The notes: a model not told the origin generated them from the letters alone. A stretch of DNA of 64,000 nt from Candidatus Hadarchaeota archaeon (GCA_964621445.1 CAZUNO010000012.1:16516-80515); one strand, 5' to 3'; shown: positions 35,215 to 59,659, numbered from the stretch's first letter. Numbers and translations: made by a program.

Positions 35215-36438
35215 ATGAGAATTCACCTGGTCATCATAATACTCATGTTTTTAATGCCCGCAGTTTCCCCAATGGAGGAAAAGGTCGATCCCCGGACGGG
35301 GAGAATCCGCCTGCTCTACATTGGATCCTCTTACTGGGGCACCAGACCGGGCCTCATATTCCTTTCGGACCCCAAGTTCCGCCCAACCTTGATTCCTGCC
35401 ATCACCGTCTGGTCCACTGGCAGGCAAACATTCGGAGATCCTGAACAGGATATCGCCAGGAGCATGAGGATATATTTCCCGAGAACATATGAAGATCTGA
35501 TAGCCAAGTATGATTTCATCCAGCTATCAGGCTGCAACGAGAACGTAATCAGCGGCAGATGGCAGCGGGATTTCACACGGGCAACGAGGGAGGAGGGCCT
35601 CGGATTTGCCATGACCGATGGGTATCGAGGCTTCGGTGGCGGTCCCCAGGCCCATTCAACCTGGGAGGGGAGTTATCTTGACGCAGCACTGCTCCCCGTG
35701 AACTCACTCACCAAACAATTCGTAATAGGGCCCATGTGGGCTAGGGTCCTTGAACCAGACAATGACCTCATGAAATCGCTGCCTCTAGAAAGTGCCCCTC
35801 CTCTTATGGAAATAAACGAGGTCACAATGAAACAGGGTGCCACCTTGCTCATGGATATCGAGCCCCAGGCCAAACCCCTAATGGCATACTGGGACGTTGG
35901 AGAAGGAAGATGCCTTGCCTGGACATGTGATCTTCACGGAGCACCTAGGGGGTCGGGCATCTGGCAAAGGGAATGGAACTACTGGATTGATTTCGTACTC
36001 AACCTTGATTACTTCGTGGCGGGTATTGAATGCCCCAAGGACCCCATGATGATGCACGCCATAAGGGAAGGATTCTGATCGTACTCGGAGAGGCTTGCCC
36101 TCATAAACGATCTAATATCATTCATACAAAGATTCGGGGCCAGCACCGGGAAGATTGACCAGCACTTGGATATCTTGAAGTCCCTGAAGAGAGATATCGA
36201 TGAGTCGTATCTGGATCAAAAGTACCAGGAAACCCTGTCTAAAATGAGGAACCTGGAAAGGGAATTCGAGTCGGCTCAGGAAACGGCCATGGAGATTAAG
36301 GATAATGCACTTCTCTGGGTCTACACGGTCGAATATTTGACGGTTCTGGGAACCATCCTGGCATCTGGTGCCGTTTTGTGGTCCGTCCTTGTGAAAAGAT
36401 CCCTTTACAGGGAGGTGAAGACCACCCGTGAGAAATGA
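35215..36438 (+). pseudogene. secreted, membrane-anchored GATase1-like domain protein interrupted by an in-frame TGA (36076-36078)
   Basis: ORFs 35215-36078 and 36166-36438 share a frame with no other stop between them; signal peptide, GGFGG-like and GEGR motifs, C-terminal TM helix plus basic tail. Confidence 0.65.
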
Positions 36439-36449
36439 TTACGTCGACA

Positions 36450-37137
36450 TCATCTCCATACCAGCCTCAGCCCCTCGATACCAAGGGGAACTCCAACATA
36501 CTCATCGGTCCAACCATGGTAATCCCTAAAACTCCGTGGATTCACCCCTGTGAACTCGTCCGCCTCCCAGTGTCTGGGACCTAGGAGGTTTCGGAGGCTG
36601 TTAGTGAGCTTTATTTTGATTTCATTCATGCCCACCTTGAGTTCATCCTCAACGCAAATCCGATATTCCCGCCAGAAAACGTTCCCTACCTTCTTTTCGT
36701 TGACTATAAATTGGGCTACGGTACCCCCGAGCTGTTCAAACTCAAGGTAGGGCCTCCCGGGCCTCCGCTTCTCGATCCTTATTTCCGTTTCCAGTACAAT
36801 TGTCCCGGCGAAGAAGGGATATCCATGAGTTCTAAGGTCTGATATATCAGGGCACTCGGACTCCTCCTCCGTGAGAAGAGGGCACTTTCCGTCTATCCTA
36901 ACCGCAAAATCACCAAGAATATAGGCATCCTCGATACTGAGATCCTCTTCCTTTCTCCCCCTGATTATGACACGATTACGCCCCTTTACCAGGCATCCAT
37001 CCGCCGAAATCCGTCTGAATGCCGGATCAAGCCACCATGAATTCTCCTGGGGTTCAACCTTTCTCTCGTTGATGTAAAGGTCAAACCTCTGGGCATCTTC
37101 AATAACCACGGAAACGGAATATGACGAATCATTACGG
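36450..37137 (-). pseudogene. 3' fragment of the split glycoside hydrolase gene
   Basis: YILGDFAV, GYPFFAG, TNSLRNLLGPRH; continues the frame of 45232-47390 across the direct repeat. Confidence 0.85.
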
Positions 37138-37147
37138 AACTCGTATT
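37138..37147 (+). repeat. left att core (direct repeat)
   Basis: AACTCGTATT, identical to 45232-45241. Confidence 0.9.
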
Positions 37148-37350
37148 ATGTCACGTGTTAGTGTTGCTTTTGTTCCAATATTAATCTAATCGAGATGATA
37201 GCTTGATATATTTAAAATTTTTTATAAAAAAAATCCATTAAAATTGTGACAATAATTATATTTATTAGGATTCAAAGAAAAAGATATTGGAATCGAGATC
37301 TAAAAAAAAATGAGATTTGTTTGAAGTTGAAATCTAAAAACAAGATAGAC

Positions 37351-38226
37351 TTGAAGCTGGCACGGTTTAGAGAAAGGATATCTGGCCGGAAGTGGAACCC
37401 ACTGACCGTGAGGCAGTACGTGGTGTGGGCCAGGAGGCTTGAGGCCTGGGCCAAGCTCCATAACCAAGAACCGGAAAGCTTCCCGGGCTTGATGTTCGAC
37501 TTCGACACCTATCTCGCCAACCTCCCCCGGAACCCGCCCTGGGGGTCCACCAAGAAGAAGGGCGACAGCTATGCGTATCGGTCCCGGGTCCAGGCTCTCT
37601 CCGCAGCCAAGCTCTACCTACAGCTCATGTACGGGGCCCGCCTGGAGCGGGACGTGGACCAGTTCGTATCCGGGCAGCAACCCCAGTTCAAGCCGGAGTG
37701 GTACACCAGGGAGGAGGCACACAAGATCTTCAGAGACACCGCCAACTGTAGCTACCCCTCCTGCCGGGCCATGACCAGGCTGGGGTACGACTGCATCCTG
37801 CGGTGCGCCGAACTGGTAAAGGTACAGAAAAACGACATAGACATGAACCGAAAAACCCTGGAGGTCAGGGCGGTCAAGCACTCCATCCCCAGAGAGGTAG
37901 GGTTCACCGAGAAGACCAAGGCCCTGCTGGAGCCGGTTATGGAGAGGCGAAAGACTGGGCACCTGTTCCTGACCTACGAGACCGAGGACAGGCCGGGCGT
38001 CAAGCCCTTCCAGCCGCAGTCATGGAGCAGGCACTTCAGGAGAGAGCACAACGCCAAGTTCCACAAGCTGTGCCGGCATTCGAGCATTATCCACAAGCTG
38101 CAGGAGGGATGGAGGTTCGGCGATGTCTACCTCCAGGCCAGGCACAGGCACCCCTCCATGACCGCCAAGTACGCGGAGTACGCAGCGGTAGAGGTCCCGG
38201 AATGGGCTCAGGAGACCCCTTTCTGA
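37351..38226 (+). CDS. tyrosine recombinase/integrase, apparently intact
   Basis: ILRCAEL (R), AVKHS (K), FHKLCRHS (H..R), ARHRHPSMTAKY (H, Y); start uncertain (ORF open from 37246); visibly GC-richer than its flanks. Confidence 0.88.
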   Translation: MKLARFRERISGRKWNPLTVRQYVVWARRLEAWAKLHNQEPESFPGLMFDFDTYLANLPRNPPWGSTKKKGDSYAYRSRVQALSAAKLYLQLMYGARLERDVDQFVSGQQPQFKPEWYTREEAHKIFRDTANCSYPSCRAMTRLGYDCILRCAELVKVQKNDIDMNRKTLEVRAVKHSIPREVGFTEKTKALLEPVMERRKTGHLFLTYETEDRPGVKPFQPQSWSRHFRREHNAKFHKLCRHSSIIHKLQEGWRFGDVYLQARHRHPSMTAKYAEYAAVEVPEWAQETPF

Positions 38227-38982
38227 AGGCGGTAAGCCCTCGCCATTAGCGGTGAAGGAAAGGGGGAAGACAAAAACACAAAGCCTGAAAAAGGTGACCA
38301 GCCGCCAGTGAAGAGGAGAAAAAAACTTTCTGAATATTGAAATTATGATCATTTAACTTGGAAATGAGAAGCCCCCCAATCAGGGATCTTTATGATGAGA
38401 AAAAGGGTTGACCCAGCACCTATAGACAGCACAGGTATCTCCTATAAGAAACTGCCAAACCATCCCGATATCGATTAGGCAAATGAAAAACACTCAGTGC
38501 TACCGCTATCTACCGATTTCCTTACCACCGGGGAATGGAAGCAAGATTAAGATACTGCTCCCCCTAAACAAACTCCGGGGGGTTTTCTAGTTAACCTCTA
38601 ACCATAGAAGAAGCTTTCCCGATCCTCTTCCGCTGTGAACAGATTTCGTGAAACAATATAAGATTGGCTATACTTCTGACCTTCTAGACATGCACAAACG
38701 ATTCCTGCTCAACCTAGAAAAGGTACAAAATAGGCAGAGATAACGCTATTGCTAGGCGGGGCAAACAGTGAACACGTCAATCATTGCCGGGTATTGCCTG
38801 GGCAGGGCCCTAGTGTACTTCTTGATGGTCATCCATTTTCGGCCTTGGTCTGTATAGCATTAGATGGTTGGTGGACCCTATTATAAAGCATCCCAGTATG
38901 CATTTCGTTCCCGACCCCTTGACGGTAGTAAGAGACCACAAGATGGGGAGGAGACCTATTACCACACGTTTGGCTGGCGGAA

Positions 38983-39198
38983 CTAGATCCTCGATCTTTT
39001 TACTGCCAGCTTCACGTCTTCCCCCCGTACTGTCTTTCTTCCCGCGTGTTGAGCCATCTTTTTAGCCCTGACCGCGACCAGGGCTCCGTGCTTCTCGAGC
39101 AGCTGTGCCAGGGCACGTGTGGCCGAGGCGCTGACACGCTGAGCATGAGCATTGTCTCTGATAATTCTCTCCACTGGGGCTAAAGGCAGTTCCCCCAC
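38983..39198 (-). CDS. archaeal histone (HMf family)
   Basis: (M)GELPLAPVERIIR..AQRVS...AQHAGRKTVRGEDVKLA; AGGTGA RBS before GTG 39198. Confidence 0.93.
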   Translation of the reverse strand: MGELPLAPVERIIRDNAHAQRVSASATRALAQLLEKHGALVAVRAKKMAQHAGRKTVRGEDVKLAVKRSRI

Positions 39199-39210
39199 AA
39201 CATTCACCTA

Positions 39211-39251
39211 CAGGGGCAGTTTCCCGGCCCCGTATTAAGGTGTTGCCCCTG
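39211..39251. promoter_or_regulatory. 8-bp inverted repeat bracketing the putative histone TATA box
   Basis: CAGGGGCA (39211-39218) and TGCCCCTG (39244-39251) around CTTAATA on the minus strand. Confidence 0.5.
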
Positions 39252-39397
39252 ACGGGAGTGCCCTGCCGATATGGTTTTCGACCGATCTCCGCCCGTGCAG
39301 GCGCGGGCCTTCACTCAGCTTGCGCCCGTTGAGCGAGTAGAAGCATTTTCAAGGGAGGGGGATAAGGCGGCATTGTCATTTATGGAAGGCAAGCCCC

Positions 39398-39734
39398 ATG
39401 AAGGCAAATCCACGTTGGGTTAGGTTCTCCTTGGCAGCATTCGCCGTGATGGCTGCCGCAGTCCCTGGCTTTGCGATTCTCGATATCTACAATTTTGATT
39501 GGTATTACTTTGGAGGAACGGGGGGGGAGAGCTTCGCTGGCAACTTTACTGCCTATCATATTTGGTATGCTCAACTTAGTAGTTTTCTTTTCAGGCCCTC
39601 TTATGTTCGCACTTGGGATTCTAGAGGGATATCAGATTGTTCGTGGTCTTATGGATCCTTACAAGAATCCTAGCGAGTTCCCAGTGCCTCATACTACAGT
39701 AAGGTATGAGAATGACATAAGGGGAGAAATATGA
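39398..39734 (+). CDS. small membrane protein split by a G8 tract
   Basis: Overlapping ORFs 39398-39673 and 39471-39734 join into a 111-aa hydrophobic protein if G8 (39520-39527) is G7. Confidence 0.45.
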
Positions 39735-40351
39735 AGTCTGTACGAAAGAAGGTTTATGGGAACCGAATAATAGTAATTACTGGTCAGAGTACTTCTTTGA
39801 ATTGTGGCGGTATGGGAATGATACTCGGCTTCACTAGATCCTTGGAAAACTCCTTCCAAGAATCTAAGATTTTCCTTCTATCAAATAATTCTAAACTGGA
39901 TCAAAGAAGATATGCCTTGGAGAATATTGAGATCGTGCAAAGATCTTGGGTAAGGGCAAAAGATAGAGATTTTCAGAAGTATCTCTATACTGTTATCTCC
40001 TTTCTCCTTATTGTAACTAGGGCTTTCCTTTACCGTTTGGCAGGAGTACTTCATCTTGAGAGTGAAAGAATCTTGGAGTCTACGCTCTCTGTTTATGTTC
40101 GGTCGAATGTTGTTGTCGATATCAATGGGGATTGTTGGTCTCGGCATTTCGATCATCGTTTTTTTCCCTGGTTATTGCCCTTGGTTTTACATGGGGTGGA
40201 TTTAACTAGGAGCGGAGGTATTGGTTTGGCATTATATTATCGACCGGTGGTTCTGTTTTCCCTATTTTTGTTCACTGTGCTCCCCCAGTTGGGGGTCGCC
40301 AGGATTACTCCTGATTGTAGTGATCTCGGGGAGTTAGAGCGATTGGAATAA
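39731..40351 (+). pseudogene. truncated polysaccharide pyruvyl transferase family protein
   Basis: RIIVITG...NCGGMGM N-terminus and VVVDINGDCWS; similarity is lost after ~40140. Confidence 0.6.
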
Positions 40352-41407
40352 GGGCAGTACCATCCCAAACACTTGTAGCCTTCAAGAACAAGGCTCCCGA
40401 TAGACGTCGGGGCCTCGCGTCAGACAATGCATCTACCCTGGCTCTCGGCCATTGATCTTTGGAGCAAGATGGATAAATGAAATTTAGGGAGGAGATTATC
40501 AGCCTGCTGCCAAAACCTATTTCACACCAACTACAATAGGACTAAAGGACATTGTGCATCCGTAGATACAAAAATGGGTTCCAAACTATTTCGATAACAC
40601 AGGGACTGGAAAACCTAGAAAGAGCTTGGTCTAGATCTCATACCCAAATTCTGCGAGAAAATAGCATGATTCTAGGGCCTACCTCTCGATGATCACGCCG
40701 GGCCGTTCTCACCACATATCGCCGTCCATTGTTTAGTGCCTCTATTGGCTACTCCTCCTGTATCAATCCCTGTCTAGGAATGTTGGCGCGGATATGCCCG
40801 AATAATCATTCCTCATAACTTGCTGAAAGTCCTCCGTAGACATGGTGGACAACGTTCCAGACGCTATCTACTCACCGGTCTCGGAGTAGGTGACTACAAC
40901 ATTCAGCTTCTGGGCCACACATATGTTCAAGGAAGGATTCCTCCTGCCCTCCACCAGCCTTCCCTCGCCCCACTGGAAGGAGGGAACTTTCAATAACAGG
41001 ATTAGAGCTCAATTATTGGTTGTTCAAGAACGTGGTTCAATCTCTTCATAGCATCAATCATCTCCTTCTGTACTCTGCACCACTCTCCGTCATCGTCTCC
41101 CTACATCAGTAATCTTCTTTCAAACCCTTGAAGCTTTTCTGTCCTCCATCTTGGCCCATGCAAGTCATCATGTGTAATTGGCTAAAGAACAGCAAAACAC
41201 ACCGCATTGCCGGAACCGCGGTACCGCGAAATAGTTATTAAAACCCCTAATTCAAAAACAGTCAACAAAATCCGTCCAAACCCCCAAAACCCGCTCATTC
41301 AAGCTCAAAAATTGAAATAAAAAAATCCAAAAAACATAACCTTGGATGTCCACCCGCTACAGCGAGGGAATCCCTACGGGCCGGCCCACTTGGTCAAGAA
41401 TACATAA

Positions 41408-43750
41408 CTAATCCTCTCTAGTCGTGGGGGGTCGGTAGCTGAAACCCCTTAGGAAACAAATCAGGCCCACGAATAGCAGGGGGAGTAAAAGTTCAGTAAT
41501 CGGGAACCACAACGAGTTGGATCCAGCTGATTTAAGGGTAAGCCACTCCTGTTCTCTCTGATATTCCGCCGGGTATGCGGTGTGGTAGTACTCGGGCCAC
41601 GGTGATGGTGCGGGGTATTGGCCGCCCAGGGTCAGTGAGTAGAGCTGTGTTTCCTGGTAGGTGTGTCCTCCTAGCTCGACTATCCACTCGGAGACGTTGT
41701 CACCGTCGATGTCGCCCCACCAGCCTCCGTTCTCCGCCCTCCTGTTCACTGCTACATTCTCGTTCATGTAGTATGCTTCCAGCCTCCCCGTGGCGCCATC
41801 GGTGACTATCGGGAAGGGGGCTAGCCAAAGCACCTCTAGCTCGCCGTCGCCGTCGATATCGGCTATCGTCTGGTAAGAGGACCAGTAGTTGGCGGTCGCT
41901 CCCCACGGTAGTTCCCCGCTCTGGCTCATCTCGGTGAAGTTAACCTCCCATATGACCTCCGGGGAATCCCCGCTTATGTTGAGGGCGAAACCGGCGTCAC
42001 TGGACATCACCACCATATCCATACCGCCATCTCGGTCCAGATCCCCGACAGCCTGACAGAGCCTGATTGTGCCCTGCCTGGGGTGCCTCCATGACCACTC
42101 CTCCACGCCCTCATGGCTGATGCTGAAAACAGACGACATCGGCGGGCTGGTCCAGGCCAGCGCCTCGAACTCCCCGTCCCCGTCGATATCCGCTACAATC
42201 ACATTGTTGAACTCCATGTTGGACCCTGTGTCGAACCTCCACCTCTCCAACCCGGACCCGGCATCAATGCAGTACACATTGTGGTCCTGGCAGGCCCAAA
42301 CCACCTCGAACTCACCGTCCCGGTCGATATCACAGACAGTGGGATGACCACCGTTACCCGGCAAGGTCTGGAACGAGGTCCAAACCAGCTCGCCCTCATG
42401 GCTAACGCGGTGGATATAGCCATGGTTGGTGCTGAGAAAGAACTCAACGAAACCATCGCCATCAACATCCAAAGCCTGCGGGGCACCAAACATATCCGCC
42501 CGATCGGGTTCATCCCAGTACCACACAAGCTGTCCATCACCATTCAGAACATGAAGCCTTCCACCCCTACCAGCCAGACAGAGCTCATAGACACCGTCGG
42601 CATCAACGTCCACCAGGGACACCTTACCCGGGTTACCGGGAAGCCCAGGCATATCGGGAGGAGGATACATCCACTCCAGCCTGGAATCCGCATCGACACA
42701 CCACAGCCTCTTGGTATCACCCCTCCCGTTACCGAACACCATCTCCATCACCCCGTCACCGTCCACATCCCAAACCGTCTGACATCCCCGGTGCCCCGGA
42801 CCAACGATCGAGGAGGTAAGATCACTCATATTGACAATCCACTCAACACCGAGCAGAGGGACCTCCGGTTCCCTGAACTCGGTCGAGAAATTCACCCCAG
42901 CGCTAGCCTCAGTCCGACCATCAGAGACATATACCACCAACCGGTGAACCCCATCCGGCAAGACCAAGTCAATCTTCTTGTCCACCACAACAGGGCAGGC
43001 ATCATTACCGATGTAGCTCTGCCTGGCATGGCCCTCCAGAATTATCTCGCCGTCGACCTCTACCCGCCAGTCAATCTCAATAGGTTCAACATCCACATCG
43101 TACACCCGGAAACAAACCGACCAGAGTCTAGCTAACTCCGCTCCCTGGTTCGGCTCGGTGATAACCAGGTACCGAGTCTCCCCCGGCACCCTGGACCCGG
43201 AGATGTTACCGGCAAGCGTGATACCGGCCCGCGGGTATCTAAGAGCAACCCGACTCATCTCCTGGAACTGATACCTCGGGAGCCTCCACACAGCCCACAG
43301 CCCGATACAGGAACGGGGGCTAAGGTTATACCTCCCATGCTTCCAGATCTTCTCTACAAGCCCATCGCATTCCATTTCACCAAATTGTTGGGACCATCGA
43401 TGGTAGTAACAATCTCTCCACGGGCCGTCATCCACCTTAAACTCCATCAAACGCGGATCAATAACCATATAGCTATCCAGGTTGTTGCGGAGTCTCATCC
43501 AAACGATAACCTCCCTGAACCCCTCAACATCCCCAACGGCAACCAACTCCAGGGTCACCCCATTACTCGTGGCATCCACAGACATGTAGGAATGGTTGCC
43601 ATGGAGTGGTTGTGAAGAACCTCCAGGATCAACGTCAAGGCTAGACACCAAGCTGAAGTTAAGCGGAAGAATTAGAAAAAGGAAAAATAGAGAATTGAAT
43701 TTCGTCATCCTAATTCCACTGAACGAAGGATTGTTCCACATGAAAATCAC
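41408..43750 (-). CDS. secreted surface protein with FG-GAP/beta-propeller repeats and C-terminal membrane anchor
   Basis: Signal peptide; repeated D(V/I)DGDG.xE motifs; C-terminal PITE + hydrophobic helix + basic residues. Confidence 0.82.
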   Translation of the reverse strand: MIFMWNNPSFSGIRMTKFNSLFFLFLILPLNFSLVSSLDVDPGGSSQPLHGNHSYMSVDATSNGVTLELVAVGDVEGFREVIVWMRLRNNLDSYMVIDPRLMEFKVDDGPWRDCYYHRWSQQFGEMECDGLVEKIWKHGRYNLSPRSCIGLWAVWRLPRYQFQEMSRVALRYPRAGITLAGNISGSRVPGETRYLVITEPNQGAELARLWSVCFRVYDVDVEPIEIDWRVEVDGEIILEGHARQSYIGNDACPVVVDKKIDLVLPDGVHRLVVYVSDGRTEASAGVNFSTEFREPEVPLLGVEWIVNMSDLTSSIVGPGHRGCQTVWDVDGDGVMEMVFGNGRGDTKRLWCVDADSRLEWMYPPPDMPGLPGNPGKVSLVDVDADGVYELCLAGRGGRLHVLNGDGQLVWYWDEPDRADMFGAPQALDVDGDGFVEFFLSTNHGYIHRVSHEGELVWTSFQTLPGNGGHPTVCDIDRDGEFEVVWACQDHNVYCIDAGSGLERWRFDTGSNMEFNNVIVADIDGDGEFEALAWTSPPMSSVFSISHEGVEEWSWRHPRQGTIRLCQAVGDLDRDGGMDMVVMSSDAGFALNISGDSPEVIWEVNFTEMSQSGELPWGATANYWSSYQTIADIDGDGELEVLWLAPFPIVTDGATGRLEAYYMNENVAVNRRAENGGWWGDIDGDNVSEWIVELGGHTYQETQLYSLTLGGQYPAPSPWPEYYHTAYPAEYQREQEWLTLKSAGSNSLWFPITELLLPLLFVGLICFLRGFSYRPPTTRED

Positions 43751-43785
43751 ATTTACCTAGGAGGCTCAGCTTTCTTATAGGTCCT

Positions 43786-44388
43786 TCAGTCATCGACGAA
43801 GAGTCCTCTGGTCGGCTGGTTATTGTCATCTATCTCCAAGTTGTAAATCTCTGTGTTCGAGTCCGGTCCATTCAGATGGGCTCTGCTGAGGAACCTGAAT
43901 TTGTACTCAGCTGTGCCGAAATCGTAGTTGACTTGAAGCCACTCCGTAGATTCCGGGATACTACTTGTGGTAGTACTCCAGAGCTTGCTTCCCACGTTGA
44001 CCCAGTGCCCATCTTGTTTCTCGTAGACGAAAAGCCACATCCTGAAATAAGCTTTGCTTGCCGTGTCCTGTTCTCTTCATAGTCTACTAGCACACCACAC
44101 TTTGCGTACTCTCCACCGTCCAACTCGTTTTCGTCTGTATACCAATACGCTTCCCAACCATAATAGCCGCTTCCAGTTCCGCTGTCGAAATCGCCGTATC
44201 CTCCGTACATGTATCCATATATCCCAGCCCAATACGTGCACCCAGTTTCACAATCTCCTGAATCCACTTCGAAATGGTCGGCACTGTAACCAAATGAGGA
44301 AGTGTTGTCTATGTCTACTCTAGATATGGCCCAGACAATGGCAGCGCTGCCGATAACCAACATCACTGTCAAGATGGCTTCTCTTTTC
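43786..44388 (-). pseudogene. secreted hypothetical protein with a frameshift near 44070
   Basis: GGTGA RBS and signal peptide MKREAILTVMLVIG; the frame continues as QDTASKAYFRMWLFVYEK... in ORF 43786-44040. Confidence 0.6.
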
Positions 44389-44489
44389 ATTTCTTTCACC
44401 CCCCTTTGGCCCATCTGGAGGCCATGAGGACAGGTCGAACAACACCCAGGGAACTGTACAGATCCCTCGGTCTGGGAGCTGCGGCCTTT

Positions 44490-45177
44490 CTCGGTCCACG
44501 TTGGCCTGGGTCCTCTTTCTCTCCTCCAGGTACCGTCTTAACGCCTGGCAGGCGTCCTGCCCAAAGAAAGCTCTGTACTCAACGCCCGACTTCTTTCTAG
44601 CTAGCTTAACCAGCAGCGGGGGGTCCTCCAGGCTACCTCTTACCGGGTCCTCCACCATGACGTCGCCGACGTTCAGATCCAGCAGATCTCCTATGCTCAT
44701 ACCGGACTGCCATAGGCAGAGGATGATGGCTTTGTCTCTGTTGGCTTTTGCATGGTCCACCAGCTCTCTGACTTGGTCTCGCCGAATATTCATCTTCCGG
44801 TTTCTCTGTCTTCTGGTCGCTTTCGGTAAGCTCAACTTTTTCTTGTCCACGGGGAGATCGTTGTAGTTCAAGAACTCCGTTATGCCCGAAAGGTACTTGT
44901 GACAGGTTTTAAGAGCGAAACCTTTTTCTCCATTCTTCTTCTCCGCCTGGCTGTGGAGGTAGTTGAAGAACCCCTTGAGGATGTTGACTTCAGGCCTTTG
45001 ACGTTTCTCTATATCCTTTCTCCTGTCCTCGGCGACAACCCTTATCAGTCCCTCTCCCAAGATTTTGTGCCCTCGCTCCTTCTCCATGTAGCCCTGGAAA
45101 AGCTGGAACGCTCTCCGGTACGCTGTCCGCGTGGACTCATTCTTAGATTCAAGGAAGCTCTCAGTCCTGTTGTCCAT
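44490..45177 (-). pseudogene. tyrosine recombinase/integrase, C-terminally truncated
   Basis: STRTAYRRAF N-domain, RDKAIILCLWQSGMSIGDLLDLNVGD, RKKSGVEY, ALRRYLEER; no HxxR/Y region before the next gene. Confidence 0.82.
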
Positions 45178-45221
45178 GGTACCACACCCAACCTAAACAC
45201 CCAAAGTAAAAATGTAACTAG

Positions 45222-47390
45222 TTAATGAACTAACTCGTATTCGACTTCGAACTCAGCCCCGTTATTCAAGGAGGAAACCGCCTCCTGGACCTGCCACACT
45301 GGCAGAATCTCGCTCCATTCGCCAGATCCATTCACTGGTCTCCACCTGGCGAAATCCATTACCGCCTGATTGGGTTGAGAACGGGATATCTTCCAGGAAG
45401 AATCGGGTTCAGTTATATGCAGAGGCTCATCGAGCACCTCCTCTGCCTCTCCATCCACCTGAAAATCCGGATTGACCAGAAATAGTCTCCCCTGACCACC
45501 GGCCAGGTCGAAGGTCGTGTTCCGTGGACGAGATAAAACCTCACCCGTGTGGGGAACCAGCTCCTGGACCTCATCCTCGAAATCCACATTCAGCCTCATA
45601 GTTTTCGAGTAATGCATATTTACCATGAAGCTTATGGTTGAATTTCCCAACCTTCGCCTATGAATTAGTAGATTTCGTAGAGGTGCTCCTGACACCCATT
45701 CAATGGAAGGGCCGGGGCTAAGAAACGGTTTTATTTTGGACGCCAGACTGCGTTCGGAGTTTTTAGTTTTTATCGCCCGGGCCAGCAGATCCTGGAGCTC
45801 GCCTGATTCCTCCCCCTCGATCAGATATGGTACCTCCCCAACCAGGATGATCTCACCACCCGATTCCGAGAGATCTTTGAGCAGCTCGAAGGTCGATCGC
45901 CTGATGCTTTTCATGGAGGGAATGACCACTACCCGGTATTTCTGGCGTCCCAGGACCAATTTCCCTCCACGAACCTCCCCATGCTTTTCAATGATGAACT
46001 CCTCACCGTACTCAAAATCTATCTGACTTCTAAGGAGATTCCAGGTCAGCTCTCTAAATTTCTCAAAGACATCCTCAACCCGATCCGGTCTGGATGGGCT
46101 ATACTCGGCCCAGGCGCTTCCTATGGGATGGATGACTAGCACATCAACCAATCTATCTCCATGCGATAGGACGTAACTAAGCCTGGTGAAATAATCGGCT
46201 ACCATGCGGTTATATTCCCACCAGGGCTGATGGGGAGATAGCGTGGGTGGATAGTCCCTCTTTCGAGCCCCCCTCAAGGAATATAAAGCCAGGTGTTGGC
46301 ACAGAAAATTTACCCCCAGCGCGTATTGAAAGTTGCCTATCCATCTTCTATCATGAAAGTCCAGCGCCTGTCCAGAGGTGCCGTAGCTCTCGGATAGAAC
46401 CCTTCTCTTGCCGAGCTGAGAGGAAACCGAGGCAACCTGCTTCTCTACCCAGGGATTATGTATGCCCTTTCCCAGGTGGTCTATTCCTGGCTGTTGCATG
46501 TATTCATAGTGTTGCATGGCACTCCCAATGCAGTGGATCTGGCCCAGAAGAGAATCCTCCCACTCGTAGTGCCCCGTATAGCTCAGTGACCGTTCCTCGC
46601 ACCAATCATGGACCTGCTTGCTGAAAGCCTCCACGAAAAGCCGGGTCAATGTAGAGTAATAATCGTACCTTACCTTTCTGAATTCTCCTTCATCGAAAAA
46701 TAGGCTTTCAATATGATCCGCTAAATTGTATCCGTGTTCCACCTCAAACCTATCAACCATGTCCTTTGCCCAGGGAATAACAAGTTTCCCGCTCTGGGAA
46801 TGATGGGTGGCATACTGCGGCTCGTCGGTAAATATGCCCGGTACAGTTTCACCAAACTCGTTTCCCAGGTGAATCTCATATAGTTCGTGGGTTGACTCCA
46901 GGAAGCAACCAACTGCATCGGGGTTTAGTAGATTTGGGATATGTCCCATCGGCATGACCTTGGCGAAGAAATCGAAGGATTGCATCTCCCCGTCGATCTC
47001 CATCTCCCTCCTTGCCAGGGTATTCAGCGGAGGCCTGGAATCCCGTGATGGCCTGCAATATAGAAGCATGCTCCTGAATTCCGGGGCGAGCTTGGTGACT
47101 TGTCCTCCACCCTTTCCGCTGGGCCAACCATCCTCATCATATATCCAGAACCTGCCTCCGATCTCCTCGAACTTCCGAACGCAGGATTTGACTAGATTGA
47201 ACCAACGGTTGCTCAAATAGGGGGTCACTAGTCCCGTCCGGGCATGGAAGAAGAATCCACCCCACCCCTGACAATGGAATTCCTCTATGAACTCCAGGAG
47301 CCTTTCCTCCTCTAGCTGATCATTGACTGAAAAGAAGGGAGCGGGACGGTATTGGACAGGTGGTTCCTTGAATCGGTCTAGATTCACCAA
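45222..47390 (-). pseudogene. 5' part of a GH106/alpha-L-rhamnosidase-like glycoside hydrolase, interrupted by the element
   Basis: YRPAPFFSVND, HARTGL.TPYL, WIYDEDGWPSG, GIFTDEP, PGIDHL, RKRDYPP; AGGAGG before TTG 47390; the stop at 45222 lies in element DNA. Confidence 0.85.
45232..45241 (+). repeat. right att core (direct repeat)
   Basis: AACTCGTATT. Confidence 0.9.
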
Positions 47391-47477
47391 ACATCCTCCT
47401 CCTCTCGCCACATCTCCGGTGTTGATAAATGCGCATGTGACCGTGCCCTTTATCAATCTGGTAACCTGCCGTAAGAC

Positions 47478-48365
47478 ATGGATTTCGCTAACCCCTTCAG
47501 GGATGCTGAGGGAGCCTGGTTTAAGGGAAACGTCCACACCCACACCACTGAATCGGATGGTCACCTCTCTCCCCGGGAAGTGGCTGACTTCTACCGGGAG
47601 AGCGGATACGATTTCCTGGTTTTAACCGACCACGAGAGGGCAAGCAATCCAAGCCCCCTGTCAAGAGATGAATTCCTGGTGTTCACCGGTCTTGAAACAT
47701 CGCCGCTGGAAGAGGATCACCACATAGTGGGCATAGGAATCAAGGAAATAGGGCCTTTCTCCAGGAAGAATACCGTGCAGGAGAGCATAGATGCTCTGAG
47801 AGATATGGATGCATATGTCTTTCTCGCTCACCCTTACTGGTCAGCGCTCACCGAGAAGGATGTACTGGGACTAGGAGGTATCGATGGCCTCGAGCTTTAT
47901 AACACGGGGTGCGAAGTCGAGAAGGGAAGGGGATTTTCCACAGTTCACTGGGACAACCTTCTGTCCGCCGGCATGAGGCTAAGCGGGCTGGCAGTAGATG
48001 ATGCCCACAGGTATACCAATGACGCACCCGGTGGATGGATCTGGGTAAAGTCAGCGAAACTAACGGAAACCGCCATCCTGGAAGCCATCCGCAATGGGTT
48101 CTTCTACGCCTCCACGGGACCGAGAATACTCGATGTGGATATCAGGGAGGGCACCGTGAGCGTGCTCACCAGTCCATGCGAGGTTATAACCTTTCATAGC
48201 AAGGGGCCAACGGGAAGCAGCAACACCCGGGTGGGCGAGGGAATGCTGCATCATGCCCAGCACAAGTTGCGGCCAGAAAACGAGTACATTCGTATAGAGT
48301 GCGTTGATGGCGGGGGAAGACGCGCCTGGACCAACCCGATCTATACCGATAAATTCGGGAAATGA
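47478..48365 (+). CDS. CehA/McbA-type PHP metallohydrolase
   Basis: KGNVHTHTTESDG, LTDH, AHPYWS, VDDAH, AWTNP. Confidence 0.88.
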   Translation: MDFANPFRDAEGAWFKGNVHTHTTESDGHLSPREVADFYRESGYDFLVLTDHERASNPSPLSRDEFLVFTGLETSPLEEDHHIVGIGIKEIGPFSRKNTVQESIDALRDMDAYVFLAHPYWSALTEKDVLGLGGIDGLELYNTGCEVEKGRGFSTVHWDNLLSAGMRLSGLAVDDAHRYTNDAPGGWIWVKSAKLTETAILEAIRNGFFYASTGPRILDVDIREGTVSVLTSPCEVITFHSKGPTGSSNTRVGEGMLHHAQHKLRPENEYIRIECVDGGGRRAWTNPIYTDKFGK

Positions 48366-54925: not shown

Positions 54926-57900
54926 TCACTTCACTCTTTTATACTCGGTTCTTCCCATGTAAAACAGCTTTGCATATATCCAGAAGTGAGGATCCTCCTC
55001 CTCAAACTCAAAATCCAGTACCTGTCGCCCTTTTGGAGGAAGCTCGAAAGAATTAACCGATGGTGACATCTTAACCATGGAGTAATCCCCAACTTCACTC
55101 TCTGACCAGGTCTCCAGTGGGGTTATCAGGGCAATCCCTCCCGAGACCCGCTCATTATAGGGGTTCTCAAGTTTCACCGATAGACCGTCTTTCCGGAGAT
55201 AGGTTTGCCACTTGATGGATTTCTCGACTTGTTCATGGAGAACATCCTGATATACCGCCCCGCCGCCGCCGTATCTGATCTTGCTCTTCTCCCCTATCTC
55301 CATCACATCCTCATACTCCTGCCCCCCGTGCTTGAGTCGCACTCGAAGAAGACCCGTTCTCCTGTTTCCTGAGAAGGAAAATGCAAAATCATAGGTCTTA
55401 CAGCTCCTGGAAGGTACTTGATAGGATATCTCTCCCGGTTCAAGCGTCCACCCCTCAGGGGCCTCGAGCACCGCCTTACCTGATACATCCCGATCAACGT
55501 AGTTATTCATGATGCTTACCGAAAGGGAGTTAACGGTCGTGCCTCTTCCCCCCGCCTCGGTTACGGGTGTTCCCTGTATGGACACCGTCACCGGCTGATA
55601 GCCAATTGGAGCTGGGCCCAGGTTCTGTTCCCAGTATTTGGAGTATACAGGCTGGACTATTTCCATTGGTTTAGGCTCAATTGCATTATCCTGATTCGGT
55701 TCCAGATCCGGATAGAGTGCAAATGTCTGGATAGAGAAGGGCCCAATTTCCGTCGAGAAGCTGCCCTGGTCCTCAACTTCCATTTCAGATTCTGGATTCT
55801 CCATCAGGTCGGCTTTTTGCACGGATTTCAATGGAAAAGAAGCCCGGAAATGGGATTTGATTGGTCTCCCTTCGGCTTCATATACCCTGATAACCAAACC
55901 TTCGCTGGCATCCGATACCCCGGATTTGAAGCTAGCCACCGGGTTTCCAAGGGGCTTCATCGCGGTCATCACCAAGCTGTCCCCGGAGATGCTAAGGAAG
56001 GAATGATTGGTGTCCAGACTCCCATCATGCTTGCCGGTGGCCCTGCAGATCATAGGAGAGTTGAACTCCCATCCCTTGCGGTAGGATTTGGCCTCCCTCC
56101 AATTCCCGGCATGGGGATATAGAGCATAGTGGAAGATGTGATCCTTTCTCTCGGGAACGAACTTCTCATCCAGGTGCTTACGTGACCATTCAGCCGTGTG
56201 TTTTAGGAATAGAGTCATGGTTCCATCTGGTTCAACCGTATTGGCCATGTTCCCGTTATTGAGAACGCTTAGGCCATAATCCTCAACCTGGCAATCGCTC
56301 AACCTATTTGCGTGTCGAGGAATTATGATATCTCCAGTTCGTAATCCCTCGATTAGGAAATCCACCGCGTACTTCAGGCCCTTTTCATCCCTTCCCATTA
56401 TCACCAGGACCGGCATAGGTTCCCAGCCATCCGGCAAGTCGGAATCCGGCACTACAAGGAAGTCAAAACCCAACCTCTCCACCCGGCCTAGGAACCCTTC
56501 CTTCACGGAGTCCTGTAGGTGGCCGAGCAGCGAATTCGAATAGGAATTGTCTCCCCCGATTCCAATTGATATTCTGAAGTTACAGTTGGCAAGGTCTCCG
56601 TCCCTTTCGTTTGCTTGGGTGGAATCCGTAGAGGATAATTCCCCACGCCGGGGACTGTCATTGTCATCGAACCATGGGGTGGTCAAGACCCCACGCCTGG
56701 TCAGCTCGCGCTGTATATCGATGGCAAGGGGTCTTACTTGCTCGTCATGCGGGAATATAATTCCCACTGAACCGAGATTCATGGCGGCTACCGTATTTAC
56801 GTCGTTATCAACAAACCGTATCTTGGTTGTGGAACCGTAATCGAAGAAATTCTGCGACGAATGAACGGAGCAATCCGAATATGCGTCCCCCCGCCAGGTC
56901 CGGTAATCGAACTTTCTTCTACCCTTATGTTTGGTTATCGAGCCGAATCTTTCCTCGTAGGTGGGAGATCCACCCTCTATATCCGGGGGAAACACGGCGC
57001 AGAAGAGGTCGTCCTCTCCCTCGTAGCCCATTATCTTGGTTGTGAGATCTATCCTCTTCACACCATCTCTGAGTTTAATTTCACGAACGAGGTCCACTCC
57101 TTCCCGGAGGCTGTTTCGTATCTCCATCTTTCGCGTGGGCCCCGAAGCCTGGACGGAAATGTCTGCCGGGAAGTCCCCGGAGAACATCCTTTCCCCGGTG
57201 GTGAAAAATTCCCAGGAAGGCTCGTGTCGATCGTGTTCTTCCTTGAGGACTGCTATCTCGTTCATGAGAAGCTGATTCTCTTTTCGGACGATCTCCTTTT
57301 CCGCATCTTTATCCTTAATGCTGCATATCCCGCCTCCCCTTTGAGGATCGACCTCTACGATATAGAAATCATTCTCGATGGTGAAGCATTGTTCTCGCTG
57401 GACCCAACACGGAAGATCGATATCCTCAACCGGCTTGACTATATAGGTCTCAAAACCAACCGAAGGAACATCTCGGGCTGTGAACTCTATCCTGGCGGAG
57501 ATGATTCCTCCCTCTTCCTCTTTTTTATCCAGTATACAGAAGGGGATTCCCACGCCCTCGGAATCCAGCAGTTCAAAGGATTTAACCGGCTGGTCGAAGT
57601 TCAGGTCTACTCTAGCCACGTCGGTCCGGTTCCAATTCAGGGTGTTAAACACCAAAACGGGAATTCCATCTATATCCCTGGTATCGACCTTCTGGCATAT
57701 TGATTCCAGTGCCGAATCATTCACCTCACCCGATAGGTCCAGAGCCTCCCGATACCCCTGCATCATATCCAGATAGGAGATGTCACAGGAGGTTCCGGTT
57801 ATTGCGTCATGATGCGAATTGAAAAGCAGCTGTCTCCACACCTTGTCGATTCTCAAATCAGGGTATTGATTCCCTAGCAGGGAGGACAGGGTAGACAATA

Positions 57901-59659
57901 GCTCTCCATTGTAGGCCGACATCTCACCCAGTCTGTTGGCAATCTTGAGTTCAATTCTAGATTGTGAGGTTCCTATGTGATACTGGGTCGCATCCCTGGA
58001 TGTGTACGGGATATCCGAGGCGGAAGGCGATTTCTGGATTTGGTGGAAAAATTCCGTTGGATTAGCGATCTCAATGCTAGGTAACAGGGATTTTAGCTCC
58101 GAGCACCTGCCAAGACTCCAAGCCGTTGGCGGCTTGAAATCGGTTGAATCCATCCTCAGGTCAACTTCGTGGCCCAGCGACCGCATCTCCTCGAATCTGG
58201 TATAGGCACGTTGCCTCATCTCATCGAAACTGCCGGTGGTGAAGCTGTAATCAACCCGCCTGTGCAGGAGATCCGTGCCGTCCAGCGAAATATAACGAAA
58301 AACGGGAGGGAAACCCTTCACGCTCTTGGACCATACAACCCCCTGGTTACCGGATTTTGACAGGATCTGGGAAAGCTGGGGTATATGTCCGAATACGTCC
58401 CATGCGTGATAGGTCGTGGGAATGACTCCGAACTGCGATCTGGCGAAAAGCCTGCCGTACAGAATATTCCTTATTATCTGCTCGCCGGACACGTTTTTCT
58501 CGTTGGGCTGGCAGTAGGACCCGCCGGGTATTACCCTCTCCGCCTGGGCGAGGTTTATAAGGTAATCCCTATCGTTGGGATAAAAATCCAGATAGGGCTT
58601 GAGGTAATCCAACTCGTGGAATATCACCTTGAAATCGGGATCCGAACGGCAGAATTGGAGATACTGACTGACATTACTGAGAGAGATGTCGTTGTACATG
58701 GATTGGGTATGGGTCCAGACGGGGTCGCAGTGAAATCCAGCCCCCACGAAAATTCTCTCATTTTTGGAGGGTGGATCAATTCCCTCTGCGCGTGATTCGA
58801 CTTCAATTTCATCCATTAGTTTCAGGGCAAGGTCGAGGTTTCCTCCCTCTTCCCGGTTAACCGGGACTCCTTGTCTTACTAGCCTTGTTTCACCAGCCTT
58901 TAGAATACCGGCGCTGTATTCGGCTACGGGCTCTCCCTCAACTAAAATTTCTGTTGATGAACCGGTCAAGTCGGAGGATGTCAGGTTAGCCAAAGCATAT
59001 TCGATCTCGATCTGTGGATTCTCGGCCGTGCCCCTGTAAAAACCGGTGAATCTTGGACGGGTTAGTGCCAGATCCCCGCGATCCGTCAAAAAGGCCGGGG
59101 AAAAAGATAGCTTGGCCCCCCAATTGGTCCTTCTTTGAACCGCTCCGACCACCTTTACCATAATTAAATTACTACATTTCACTAGCCGAATGGGGACGAG
59201 TGCCGAACTGGGCGAGACCATCTGCCCATTTACGATTAATGCTCCCGCCATATCCGCTCGGAAGTCGCAGATAAGGAGGCGATCATCCTCGCTATCAATA
59301 TAGGCCGCTGCATAGACCAGGCCATGGTCCTTTCCCTCGAATTCCGAATCAAAAATCAAGCTCGTGGACCCTACCTCTTTATAGCTCCAGCTTACCTGCC
59401 CGCTGGGAACCGAATCGGAGTGGTGAGTCATACCCCTTGAGGGCTTTATATCCAGCTCCCCACCTAGCGGGTCCCCCTCAGGAACCTCGAGCCTTCCCAT
59501 ATGTCGAAGTGTGCTAAGCCTATCCGCGTTCTCTGAAATGAAGGGCCCACATATCAGCCACCTGCTCACAAAACCGTGACCGGCAACCTCGTTAGCATCA
59601 TTGGATGGGTAGATGTCTTGGGACATGAAAATTGCCACCTGTAATTCAAACCAGCCCAC
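54926..59659 (-). CDS. GH38 alpha-mannosidase-like multidomain protein (NEW3-like C-terminal domain)
   Basis: FHCDPVW, WDVFGH, HHDAITGT, VFNTLNW.R, IENDFY; probable start ATG ~59626. Confidence 0.88.
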   Translation of the reverse strand: MGWFELQVAIFMSQDIYPSNDANEVAGHGFVSRWLICGPFISENADRLSTLRHMGRLEVPEGDPLGGELDIKPSRGMTHHSDSVPSGQVSWSYKEVGSTSLIFDSEFEGKDHGLVYAAAYIDSEDDRLLICDFRADMAGALIVNGQMVSPSSALVPIRLVKCSNLIMVKVVGAVQRRTNWGAKLSFSPAFLTDRGDLALTRPRFTGFYRGTAENPQIEIEYALANLTSSDLTGSSTEILVEGEPVAEYSAGILKAGETRLVRQGVPVNREEGGNLDLALKLMDEIEVESRAEGIDPPSKNERIFVGAGFHCDPVWTHTQSMYNDISLSNVSQYLQFCRSDPDFKVIFHELDYLKPYLDFYPNDRDYLINLAQAERVIPGGSYCQPNEKNVSGEQIIRNILYGRLFARSQFGVIPTTYHAWDVFGHIPQLSQILSKSGNQGVVWSKSVKGFPPVFRYISLDGTDLLHRRVDYSFTTGSFDEMRQRAYTRFEEMRSLGHEVDLRMDSTDFKPPTAWSLGRCSELKSLLPSIEIANPTEFFHQIQKSPSASDIPYTSRDATQYHIGTSQSRIELKIANRLGEMSAYNGELLSTLSSLLGNQYPDLRIDKVWRQLLFNSHHDAITGTSCDISYLDMMQGYREALDLSGEVNDSALESICQKVDTRDIDGIPVLVFNTLNWNRTDVARVDLNFDQPVKSFELLDSEGVGIPFCILDKKEEEGGIISARIEFTARDVPSVGFETYIVKPVEDIDLPCWVQREQCFTIENDFYIVEVDPQRGGGICSIKDKDAEKEIVRKENQLLMNEIAVLKEEHDRHEPSWEFFTTGERMFSGDFPADISVQASGPTRKMEIRNSLREGVDLVREIKLRDGVKRIDLTTKIMGYEGEDDLFCAVFPPDIEGGSPTYEERFGSITKHKGRRKFDYRTWRGDAYSDCSVHSSQNFFDYGSTTKIRFVDNDVNTVAAMNLGSVGIIFPHDEQVRPLAIDIQRELTRRGVLTTPWFDDNDSPRRGELSSTDSTQANERDGDLANCNFRISIGIGGDNSYSNSLLGHLQDSVKEGFLGRVERLGFDFLVVPDSDLPDGWEPMPVLVIMGRDEKGLKYAVDFLIEGLRTGDIIIPRHANRLSDCQVEDYGLSVLNNGNMANTVEPDGTMTLFLKHTAEWSRKHLDEKFVPERKDHIFHYALYPHAGNWREAKSYRKGWEFNSPMICRATGKHDGSLDTNHSFLSISGDSLVMTAMKPLGNPVASFKSGVSDASEGLVIRVYEAEGRPIKSHFRASFPLKSVQKADLMENPESEMEVEDQGSFSTEIGPFSIQTFALYPDLEPNQDNAIEPKPMEIVQPVYSKYWEQNLGPAPIGYQPVTVSIQGTPVTEAGGRGTTVNSLSVSIMNNYVDRDVSGKAVLEAPEGWTLEPGEISYQVPSRSCKTYDFAFSFSGNRRTGLLRVRLKHGGQEYEDVMEIGEKSKIRYGGGGAVYQDVLHEQVEKSIKWQTYLRKDGLSVKLENPYNERVSGGIALITPLETWSESEVGDYSMVKMSPSVNSFELPPKGRQVLDFEFEEEDPHFWIYAKLFYMGRTEYKRVK

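Follow-up and report, generated by a model that had tools for sequence, protein, structure and literature searches.

Most integration sites of archaeal tyrosine recombinases lie in tRNA genes, as set out in sections 18-19 of PMC8371274. Several archaeal attachment (att) sites of the attB type presented in that source are located within protein-coding genes (HMG-CoA reductase, metal efflux and an AsnC regulator), recombination being untested for all three, and according to sections 6-8 of PMC6563490 protein-coding genes are the targets of 14 out of 68 archaeal elements, whose short att sites were verified against empty sites in relatives. Here we analyzed a 64,000-nucleotide stretch of DNA from a Candidatus Hadarchaeota archaeon (GCA_964621445.1 CAZUNO010000012.1:16516-80515; hereafter the window). 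The host is an uncultured archaeon of hypersaline mats, whose phylum is represented by five species genomes in the collection used. An insert of 8.1 kb divides a gene in the window that resembles glycoside hydrolases of family GH106. We propose, with a probability of roughly 0.8, that this insert is a cryptic integrative element which entered the gene recently, in a strain-specific manner and by the action of an integrase.

The insert belongs with the known archaeal integrations into protein-coding genes. Like the elements of Thaumarchaeota and other archaea covered by passages in PMC6563490 and PMC8371274, it is cryptic, bears integrase genes and is flanked by short direct repeats. As for the elements in those passages of PMC6563490, whose targets include diverse enzyme genes, its site is verified by an empty site in a close relative. 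In contrast to elements of that type, it cuts off a whole domain of 231 residues (at codon 716 of 948) and not a short tail, and it carries a histone gene and two different integrases, with a rare uncharacterised integrase clade among them. An earlier note on this DNA, made from the sequence, had argued from the preference of archaeal elements for tRNA genes; most do target such genes, but as a premise for calling the locus exceptional this is too strong in view of the cited passages. A second likeness is to the bacterial gene-intervening elements described in parts of PMC5595907, PMC5499854 and PMC8987985 (skin/sigK, SPbeta/spsM, gin/gerE and the comK prophage), in which an open reading frame (ORF) is interrupted that precise excision would rebuild, and in which most recognisable mobility functions have been lost. 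The element studied here differs from these in that it is not conserved at its site, resides in an archaeal host and has no recognised directionality factor. Moreover, the same passages assign SPbeta a serine integrase, whereas the recombinase found here is of the tyrosine type.

The insert is bordered by two copies of the 10-mer AACTCGTATT, both on the + strand, and an exact-match search of the window returned these two copies only (Table 1). Two or more matches to this sequence occurred in 0 of 100 shuffles of the window. The bases flanking the two copies differ, so that the identity is exactly 10 bp. The 5' frame of the split gene, as it stands, continues through the right repeat copy and three element codons to a TAA at 45222-45224. 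The 3' part is open from 37145 to its stop at 36450-36452, with an element-borne TAA (37148-37146) directly upstream. Joining 47390..45242 to 37147..36450 in a script yielded 2847 nt, that is 948 codons plus stop with no internal stop, and precise removal of one repeat unit in silico restores the gene frame, as in gene-intervening switches. TTG 47390 is the likely start codon, because three orthologues begin at this position and the longer frame from GTG 47564 overlaps a divergent gene (47478-48365). The G+C content of the element is patchy, ranging from 0.40 to 0.62, and is about 0.50-0.54 in the flanks.

Several lines of evidence identify the interrupted gene. Its 5' part passes the family threshold of Pfam PF17132 (Glyco_hydro_106) with 36.1 bits at a cut-off of 29, and both parts match the 897-position GH106 equivalog model NCBIfam NF049897 in collinear order, the 5' part at positions 404-581 and the 3' part at 778-849. 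The 3' part also matches the rhamnoside_JR domain NCBIfam NF045579 ('glycosylhydrolase-like jelly roll') and, by itself, weakly matched the PDB entries 6q2f, 5mqm and 5mwk at their C-terminal ends; a family profile matched the C-terminal domain of these solved GH106 structures at 2e-21 to 1e-16. Threshold, collinearity and C-terminal domain thus liken the enzyme to the GH106 alpha-L-rhamnosidases, from which it differs in scoring far under the NF049897 equivalog cut-off (55 vs 1300 bits). In a large protein collection, 2388 relatives of the enzyme were found at E<=1e-30 among 8000 scored candidates. The 120 best relatives all carry a precomputed PF17132 annotation, and 114 of them are 917-1072 aa long; the other six are shorter and include the window's own called product of 721 aa. 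A second family of GH106-like paralogues (1029-1053 aa) is present in this genome and its relatives.

Orthologues were sought in 41 genomes, comprising the host's own, three of the same family, one of the same class and 36 other archaea. GH106-like matches were obtained in four of the 41, the host genome included. All three same-family genomes (G001, G002 and G003) contain an uninterrupted orthologue, with open frames of 955, 951 and 961 aa and identities to the split gene of 60, 58 and 54%. Against these proteins, the 5' part shows 54-60% identity over their first three quarters and the 3' part 46-58% at their C-termini. The junction falls in a conserved motif, where the joined product aligns without a gap. 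The orthologue in G003 is followed immediately by a gene for an S15 peptidase, which in the window is found two genes beyond the 3' end. The structural claims of the earlier note are borne out by these data: a glycoside hydrolase gene is split by an element lying between the repeats, its excision gives a 2847-nt frame from TTG 47390 to 36450, as the script join also found, and both halves are free of stops and frameshifts, the joined product being collinear with the orthologues from end to end. The uninterrupted gene that the note suggested looking for is present in all three same-family genomes and in the strain described next.

To compare occupied and empty sites, three metagenomes were used as assembled contigs, in which rare variants drop out and depth, one figure per contig, is uninformative on copy number. 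Two of them, X1 and X2, are microbial-mat metagenomes of a single study, possibly the source of the genome bin, and hold 87% and 71% of the region's sampled words. The third, X3, was sampled in a different habitat, a hypersaline lake, and belongs to another study. A fourth run, X4, gave no contigs that aligned to the region. Independently built X1 contigs span both junctions (36775-37706 and 44443-45732), and an X2 contig spans the right one (45125-46096). Since these contigs cross the junctions, the occupied structure is not an artefact of the bin. In X3, the flanking genes are about 97-98% identical to those of the window, and a contig of 548 nt with 11 mismatches joins 36739-37137 to 45232-45380. 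Exactly 8094 bases are skipped, and ten letters fit either side of the joint. No X3 contig covered int1, the histone gene or int2 of the element (see below), and only short, loose-ended pieces covered its FG-GAP gene, as paralogues would give. An empty site with a single copy of the 10-mer hence exists in a sister strain. From this empty site and the intact orthologues it follows that the uninterrupted gene is ancestral and that the insertion is recent and lineage-specific, which was one of the options raised in the earlier note.

The insert encodes tyrosine recombinases at both ends, one of them complete, consistent with the initial view of it as an integrative element. Together with the flanking direct repeats and the single-core empty site in relatives, the catalytic residues of this complete recombinase, int1, are what characterizes such elements. 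R186, K211, H273, R277, H300 and Y309 of int1 are invariant in 17 aligned clade members. Relatives of about 295 aa begin near int1 residue 30, so that translation of int1 probably starts about 30 codons after the GTG given in the ORF list. Among 1.84 billion protein representatives the int1 clade is small: a threshold of E<=1e-30 gives 14 clusters, rising to 24 at 1e-10 and 82 at 1e-3. The nearest named relatives (69-74% identity) belong to single-cell genomes that bear the label candidate division MSBL1. When 401 genomes (400 other archaeal ones and the host's) were searched with a profile, only the host's own copy was returned; within the host phylum, the other four of the five genomes were without a match. 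Phage records gave no match and plasmid records at most about 30% identity. An int1 alignment used against genome, viral and metagenome contigs yielded no locus of a relative with its context.

The second recombinase, int2, is a remnant. Its relatives, MSBL1 single cells among them, are 426-433 aa long, and tblastn with four of these covered only their first 212-233 residues, down to position 44482. With the same four queries the catalytic half was found nowhere in the window or the genome, so int2 is judged to be dead from its sequence. The SSV-type ('suicidal') integrases likewise are tyrosine recombinases of archaeal integrated elements, but for them the relevant part of PMC7253208 describes an att site inside the int gene, which integration splits to both ends, whereas int1 is whole. 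An SSV-type element was excluded on this ground, and also because the missing half of int2 is neither at the other end nor elsewhere in the genome. Elsewhere in the genome, contigs C2, C4, C25, C61, C23 and C27 carry at least five additional genes or gene fragments of tyrosine recombinases that exceed the Pfam cut-off, none of them close to int1 or int2.

These observations suggest the following course of events. The element would have entered the coding sequence of a hydrolase of about 948 aa, most likely by site-specific recombination of a tyrosine recombinase across the 10-bp identity. It now parts codons 1-716 from codons 717-948, with the last 231 codons stranded behind an element-borne stop, and the cell could make at most a shortened protein of 719 residues. 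Such a product can be predicted to end in three element-encoded residues and to lack the C-terminal domain. The element itself is partly degraded, with a dead int2 and gene fragments; int1 is complete, so that excision would be possible in principle. The two gene halves would be intact because the insertion is young and not because they are kept for reassembly. An integrase is the most likely maker of the insertion, and we infer that excision is unregulated.

The break at codon 716 of 948 corresponds to residue 723 of the G001 orthologue. An AlphaFold2 model of this orthologue had a mean predicted local distance difference test score (pLDDT) of 65.6, values below 50 in the catalytic region and a predicted template modelling score (pTM) of 0.39, and was used only for placing the break in a predicted strand. 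With low confidence, the model locates the break where the C-terminal beta-rich region begins, in the first strand that follows the final helix of the N-terminal part. The best reading is that the insertion knocks out or truncates the enzyme, and it is the inactivation that we infer.

A number of points weigh against this interpretation. Concerning loss of function, the catalytic region lies within the retained 5' part. Comparison of the X3 strain with the window gave 6 nonsynonymous to 4 synonymous differences in the split gene, the corresponding counts for three flanking genes being 6 and 17 (Fisher p = 0.11; 33 of 40 listed difference rows used, seven in the element or intergenic dropped, 53 further rows outside the count), so that relaxed constraint on the split gene is a non-significant hint. 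The orthologues are only 46-60% identical to the split gene, at which distance the synonymous divergence (dS) would be saturated. Concerning the mode of insertion, an identity of 10 bp is short for an att core, and dyad symmetry around it is limited to arms of only 4-5 nt in the occupied and the reconstructed sites. Moreover, either int1 or int2 could have been the integrase that acted. Finally, rare excised forms of the element in the X1 and X2 samples would be compatible with the contig data.

The question of the acting integrase leads to a composite origin, in which two mobile elements in tandem or nested arrangement each brought an integrase of its own, the int2 element being older and largely deleted and one of the two having made the present junctions. 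We regard this as a tentative possibility. The two recombinases are unrelated in length (about 295 vs about 430 aa), have different nearest relatives and sit at opposite ends of the insert, reading inward, each starting within about 55-190 bp of an end. In addition, int2 is cut off beside a 53-nt repeat shared with contig C47, a copy of the 10-mer with one mismatch lies at 44122-44131 in the same orientation as the two perfect ones, and section 24 of PMC8371274 records tandem integrations in archaea. However, this near-copy is inside an ORF and within chance as a third, internal att copy: by our estimate about 0.2 one-mismatch copies are expected per 8 kb on one strand, and the window contains 54 matches with up to two mismatches vs 39.9 expected. 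Furthermore, all 8094 bp are missing together in X3, and neither putative sub-element was found alone.

A reversible switch, in which the surviving integrase excises the element under some condition and rebuilds the full-length hydrolase, is unlikely. Precise excision would indeed give an intact, conserved frame from halves that are free of stops and frameshifts, int1 is complete, and the element has no recognisable genes for replication, capsid or transfer, which is the state of the bacterial elements repurposed as switches in the passages of PMC8987985. These features, however, are those of any fresh insertion into a gene, plus one intact integrase, and intact halves are expected after a recent insertion anyway. 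Maintenance at one site across strains and species is typical of switches, though not strictly defining, and was not observed: the site is empty in the X3 strain, about 98% identical, and in G001, G002 and G003, so that the element is not a conserved feature of the gene. Neither an empty-site nor a circle junction is listed in the X1 or X2 contigs, which are weak evidence, as contigs cannot reveal rare forms. The exact 26-mer that the earlier note had predicted for the empty site had no match in the metagenome contigs or the genome contigs. The integrase nearest the right att copy (int2) is dead, no directionality factor was recognised among the 64 stop-to-stop frames of the element, and there is no obvious need for irreversible or developmental control of a GH106-like enzyme. 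The bacterial precedents are developmental or host-interaction genes, and literature listings and the review passages of PMC8987985 yielded no archaeal example. The switch offered by the earlier note as its other option is therefore left without support by the contigs and the relatives. Slim odds also attach to a domesticated, excision-competent element that turns on a GH106-like polysaccharide-degrading enzyme under particular conditions. In that case the gene would be, as far as our literature search showed, the first one in Archaea described as controlled by excision, and regulated excision would make it an archaeal counterpart of the bacterial excision switches.

Integration by a recombinase, as we propose, has also to be distinguished from an origin without integrase, namely transposition that duplicated 10 bp of the target, or illegitimate recombination mediated by microhomology. 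In favour of such an origin, the repeat measures only 10 bp, and there is no extended similarity between the element ends and the target flanks. Against this stand the integrase genes at both ends and the short att sites reported for archaeal integrated elements in section 8 of PMC6563490. Terminal inverted repeats were not detected, the local alignment of the element ends being matched or beaten by 167 of 200 shuffles, and no transposase or Cas1 family, nor any replication or capsid family, was found among the 64 frames. A transposon or casposon with target-site duplication was ruled against on the lack of terminal inverted repeats, transposase and Cas1, and an integrase-free origin as a whole is improbable. 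A wrong joining of unrelated DNA into the gene during assembly is most improbable: the genome is a bin of 89 contigs with 4.2% contamination and shows small differences from the X1 and X2 contigs (a T after 44070 and 39 nt at 38883-38921), but independent contigs of two runs cross the junctions, the X3 deletion agrees with the repeat to the base, and the frame is restored exactly.

An integrative element of recent arrival at this site would be of interest in several respects. Both states of an archaeal element are here defined to the base, the occupied one from mat metagenomes and the empty one from a salt-lake sister strain, and the target is the middle of an enzyme gene and not a tRNA gene. 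The element provides a defined att pair along with an intact integrase of a rare uncharacterised clade that is otherwise seen only in uncultured brine archaea; the att pair and int1 could be used for studying the target choice of archaeal recombinases. It also points to mobile elements as a source of strain-level differences in carbohydrate use in hypersaline mats.

The features of the locus are compiled in Table 1. The histone gene of the element has a close counterpart on contig C15 of the host genome (70926-71359), with 91% protein identity and 86% DNA identity over 473 nt including the 3' flank, which suggests a recent exchange between element and chromosome or a second related element. 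The FG-GAP gene is a member of a host multigene family with DNA matches of 65-73% on at least seven other contigs. Compared with the window, the X1 and X2 contigs both carry an extra T after 44070 and skip the 39 nt at 38883-38921; these differences probably reflect errors of the consensus or variation within the bin. Translation by script with the additional T gave an open frame of 209 codons, and an error of assembly probably accounts for the frameshift at about 44070. The apparent decay of the cargo, described as heavy in the earlier note, is therefore in part an assembly error: int2 is truncated and a 60-residue gene fragment is present, but int1, the histone gene and the 780-aa FG-GAP gene are intact, and the frameshift is absent from X1 and X2. 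In PHROGs, int1 and a full-length relative of int2 matched generic integrase families only, and the other six cargo ORFs were without a match.

Table 1. Coordinates of the split gene, the inserted element and its contents (positions counted from the first nucleotide of the window).
Feature	Position	Strand	Basis or remark
Left copy of the 10-bp direct repeat (att core, attL side)	37138..37147	+	Exact-match search; run-contig comparison
Right copy of the 10-bp direct repeat (att core, attR side)	45232..45241	+	Exact-match search; joint position in empty-site contig
Element body	37148..45231		Inserted unit of 8094 bp counting one repeat copy; exact 8094-base skip in X3 contig
5' part of GH106-like gene	45242..47390	-	716 codons from TTG 47390; ORF list, Pfam, NCBIfam, orthologues
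3' part of GH106-like gene, C-terminal jelly-roll / beta-sandwich region	36450..37145	-	231 codons plus stop; in frame, no stops
int1, complete tyrosine recombinase	37246..38226	+	Pfam PF00589 positions 3-167 of 172
int2, second tyrosine recombinase, remnant	44482..45177 (frame 44320-45177)	-	N-terminal 233 of about 431 residues; PF00589 positions 3-88 of 172 only
Archaeal histone gene	38983..39207	-	Pfam PF00808 3.5e-15; NCBIfam archaea_histone 8e-21
Gene fragment, 60 residues	40169..40348	+	tblastn: residues 1-60 of a 421-aa open frame on C20, 65% identity; DNA 79%
FG-GAP repeat protein, 780 aa, intact ORF	41408..43750	-	Pfam FG-GAP_3, FG-GAP
Small protein with hydrophobic N-terminus	43786..44414	-	Two overlapping frames in window; one 209-codon frame if T after 44070; no family match
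53-nt stretch with hairpin	44428..44480		94% identical to C47:10748-10800; abuts int2 break; X1/X2 contigs loose-ended at both edges

Two short stretches of the element, the 53 nt at 44428-44480 and 40 nt at 43888-43927, match single sites on contig C47 and on contig C71 with 94-95% identity, and contigs from elsewhere in the metagenome stop exactly at their edges. The site on C47 adjoins open frames that we take, from our own reading of the translations, to resemble an IS66-type transposase. Several matches of the cargo fragments occupy small contigs or the ends of contigs, a distribution to be expected if other mobile elements broke the assembly. A scan of positions 36000-48000 against Rfam at E<=0.1 gave no match, and promoter and terminator scores at the left junction were not above those of shuffles.

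The window is archaeal, encoding a class I lysyl-tRNA synthetase, a proteasome-activating ATPase, a methenyl-tetrahydromethanopterin (methenyl-H4MPT) cyclohydrolase and an archaeal enzyme of homocysteine synthesis. A sugar-related neighbourhood contains a GH38-type mannosidase of 1577 aa and a galactokinase-like GHMP kinase (54926-59659 on the - strand and neighbours), as well as GFO/IDH/MocA oxidoreductases and two carbon-nitrogen hydrolases. Adjoining the split gene on the + strand, a GATase1-like ORF (35215-36078) and a 90-aa ORF (36166-36438) form one frame (35215-36438) with an in-frame TGA at 36076-36078, which may reflect a nonsense pseudogene, read-through or an error. Contigs C47 and C71 encode paralogues (426 and 451 aa) whose alignment runs through this TGA in one frame.

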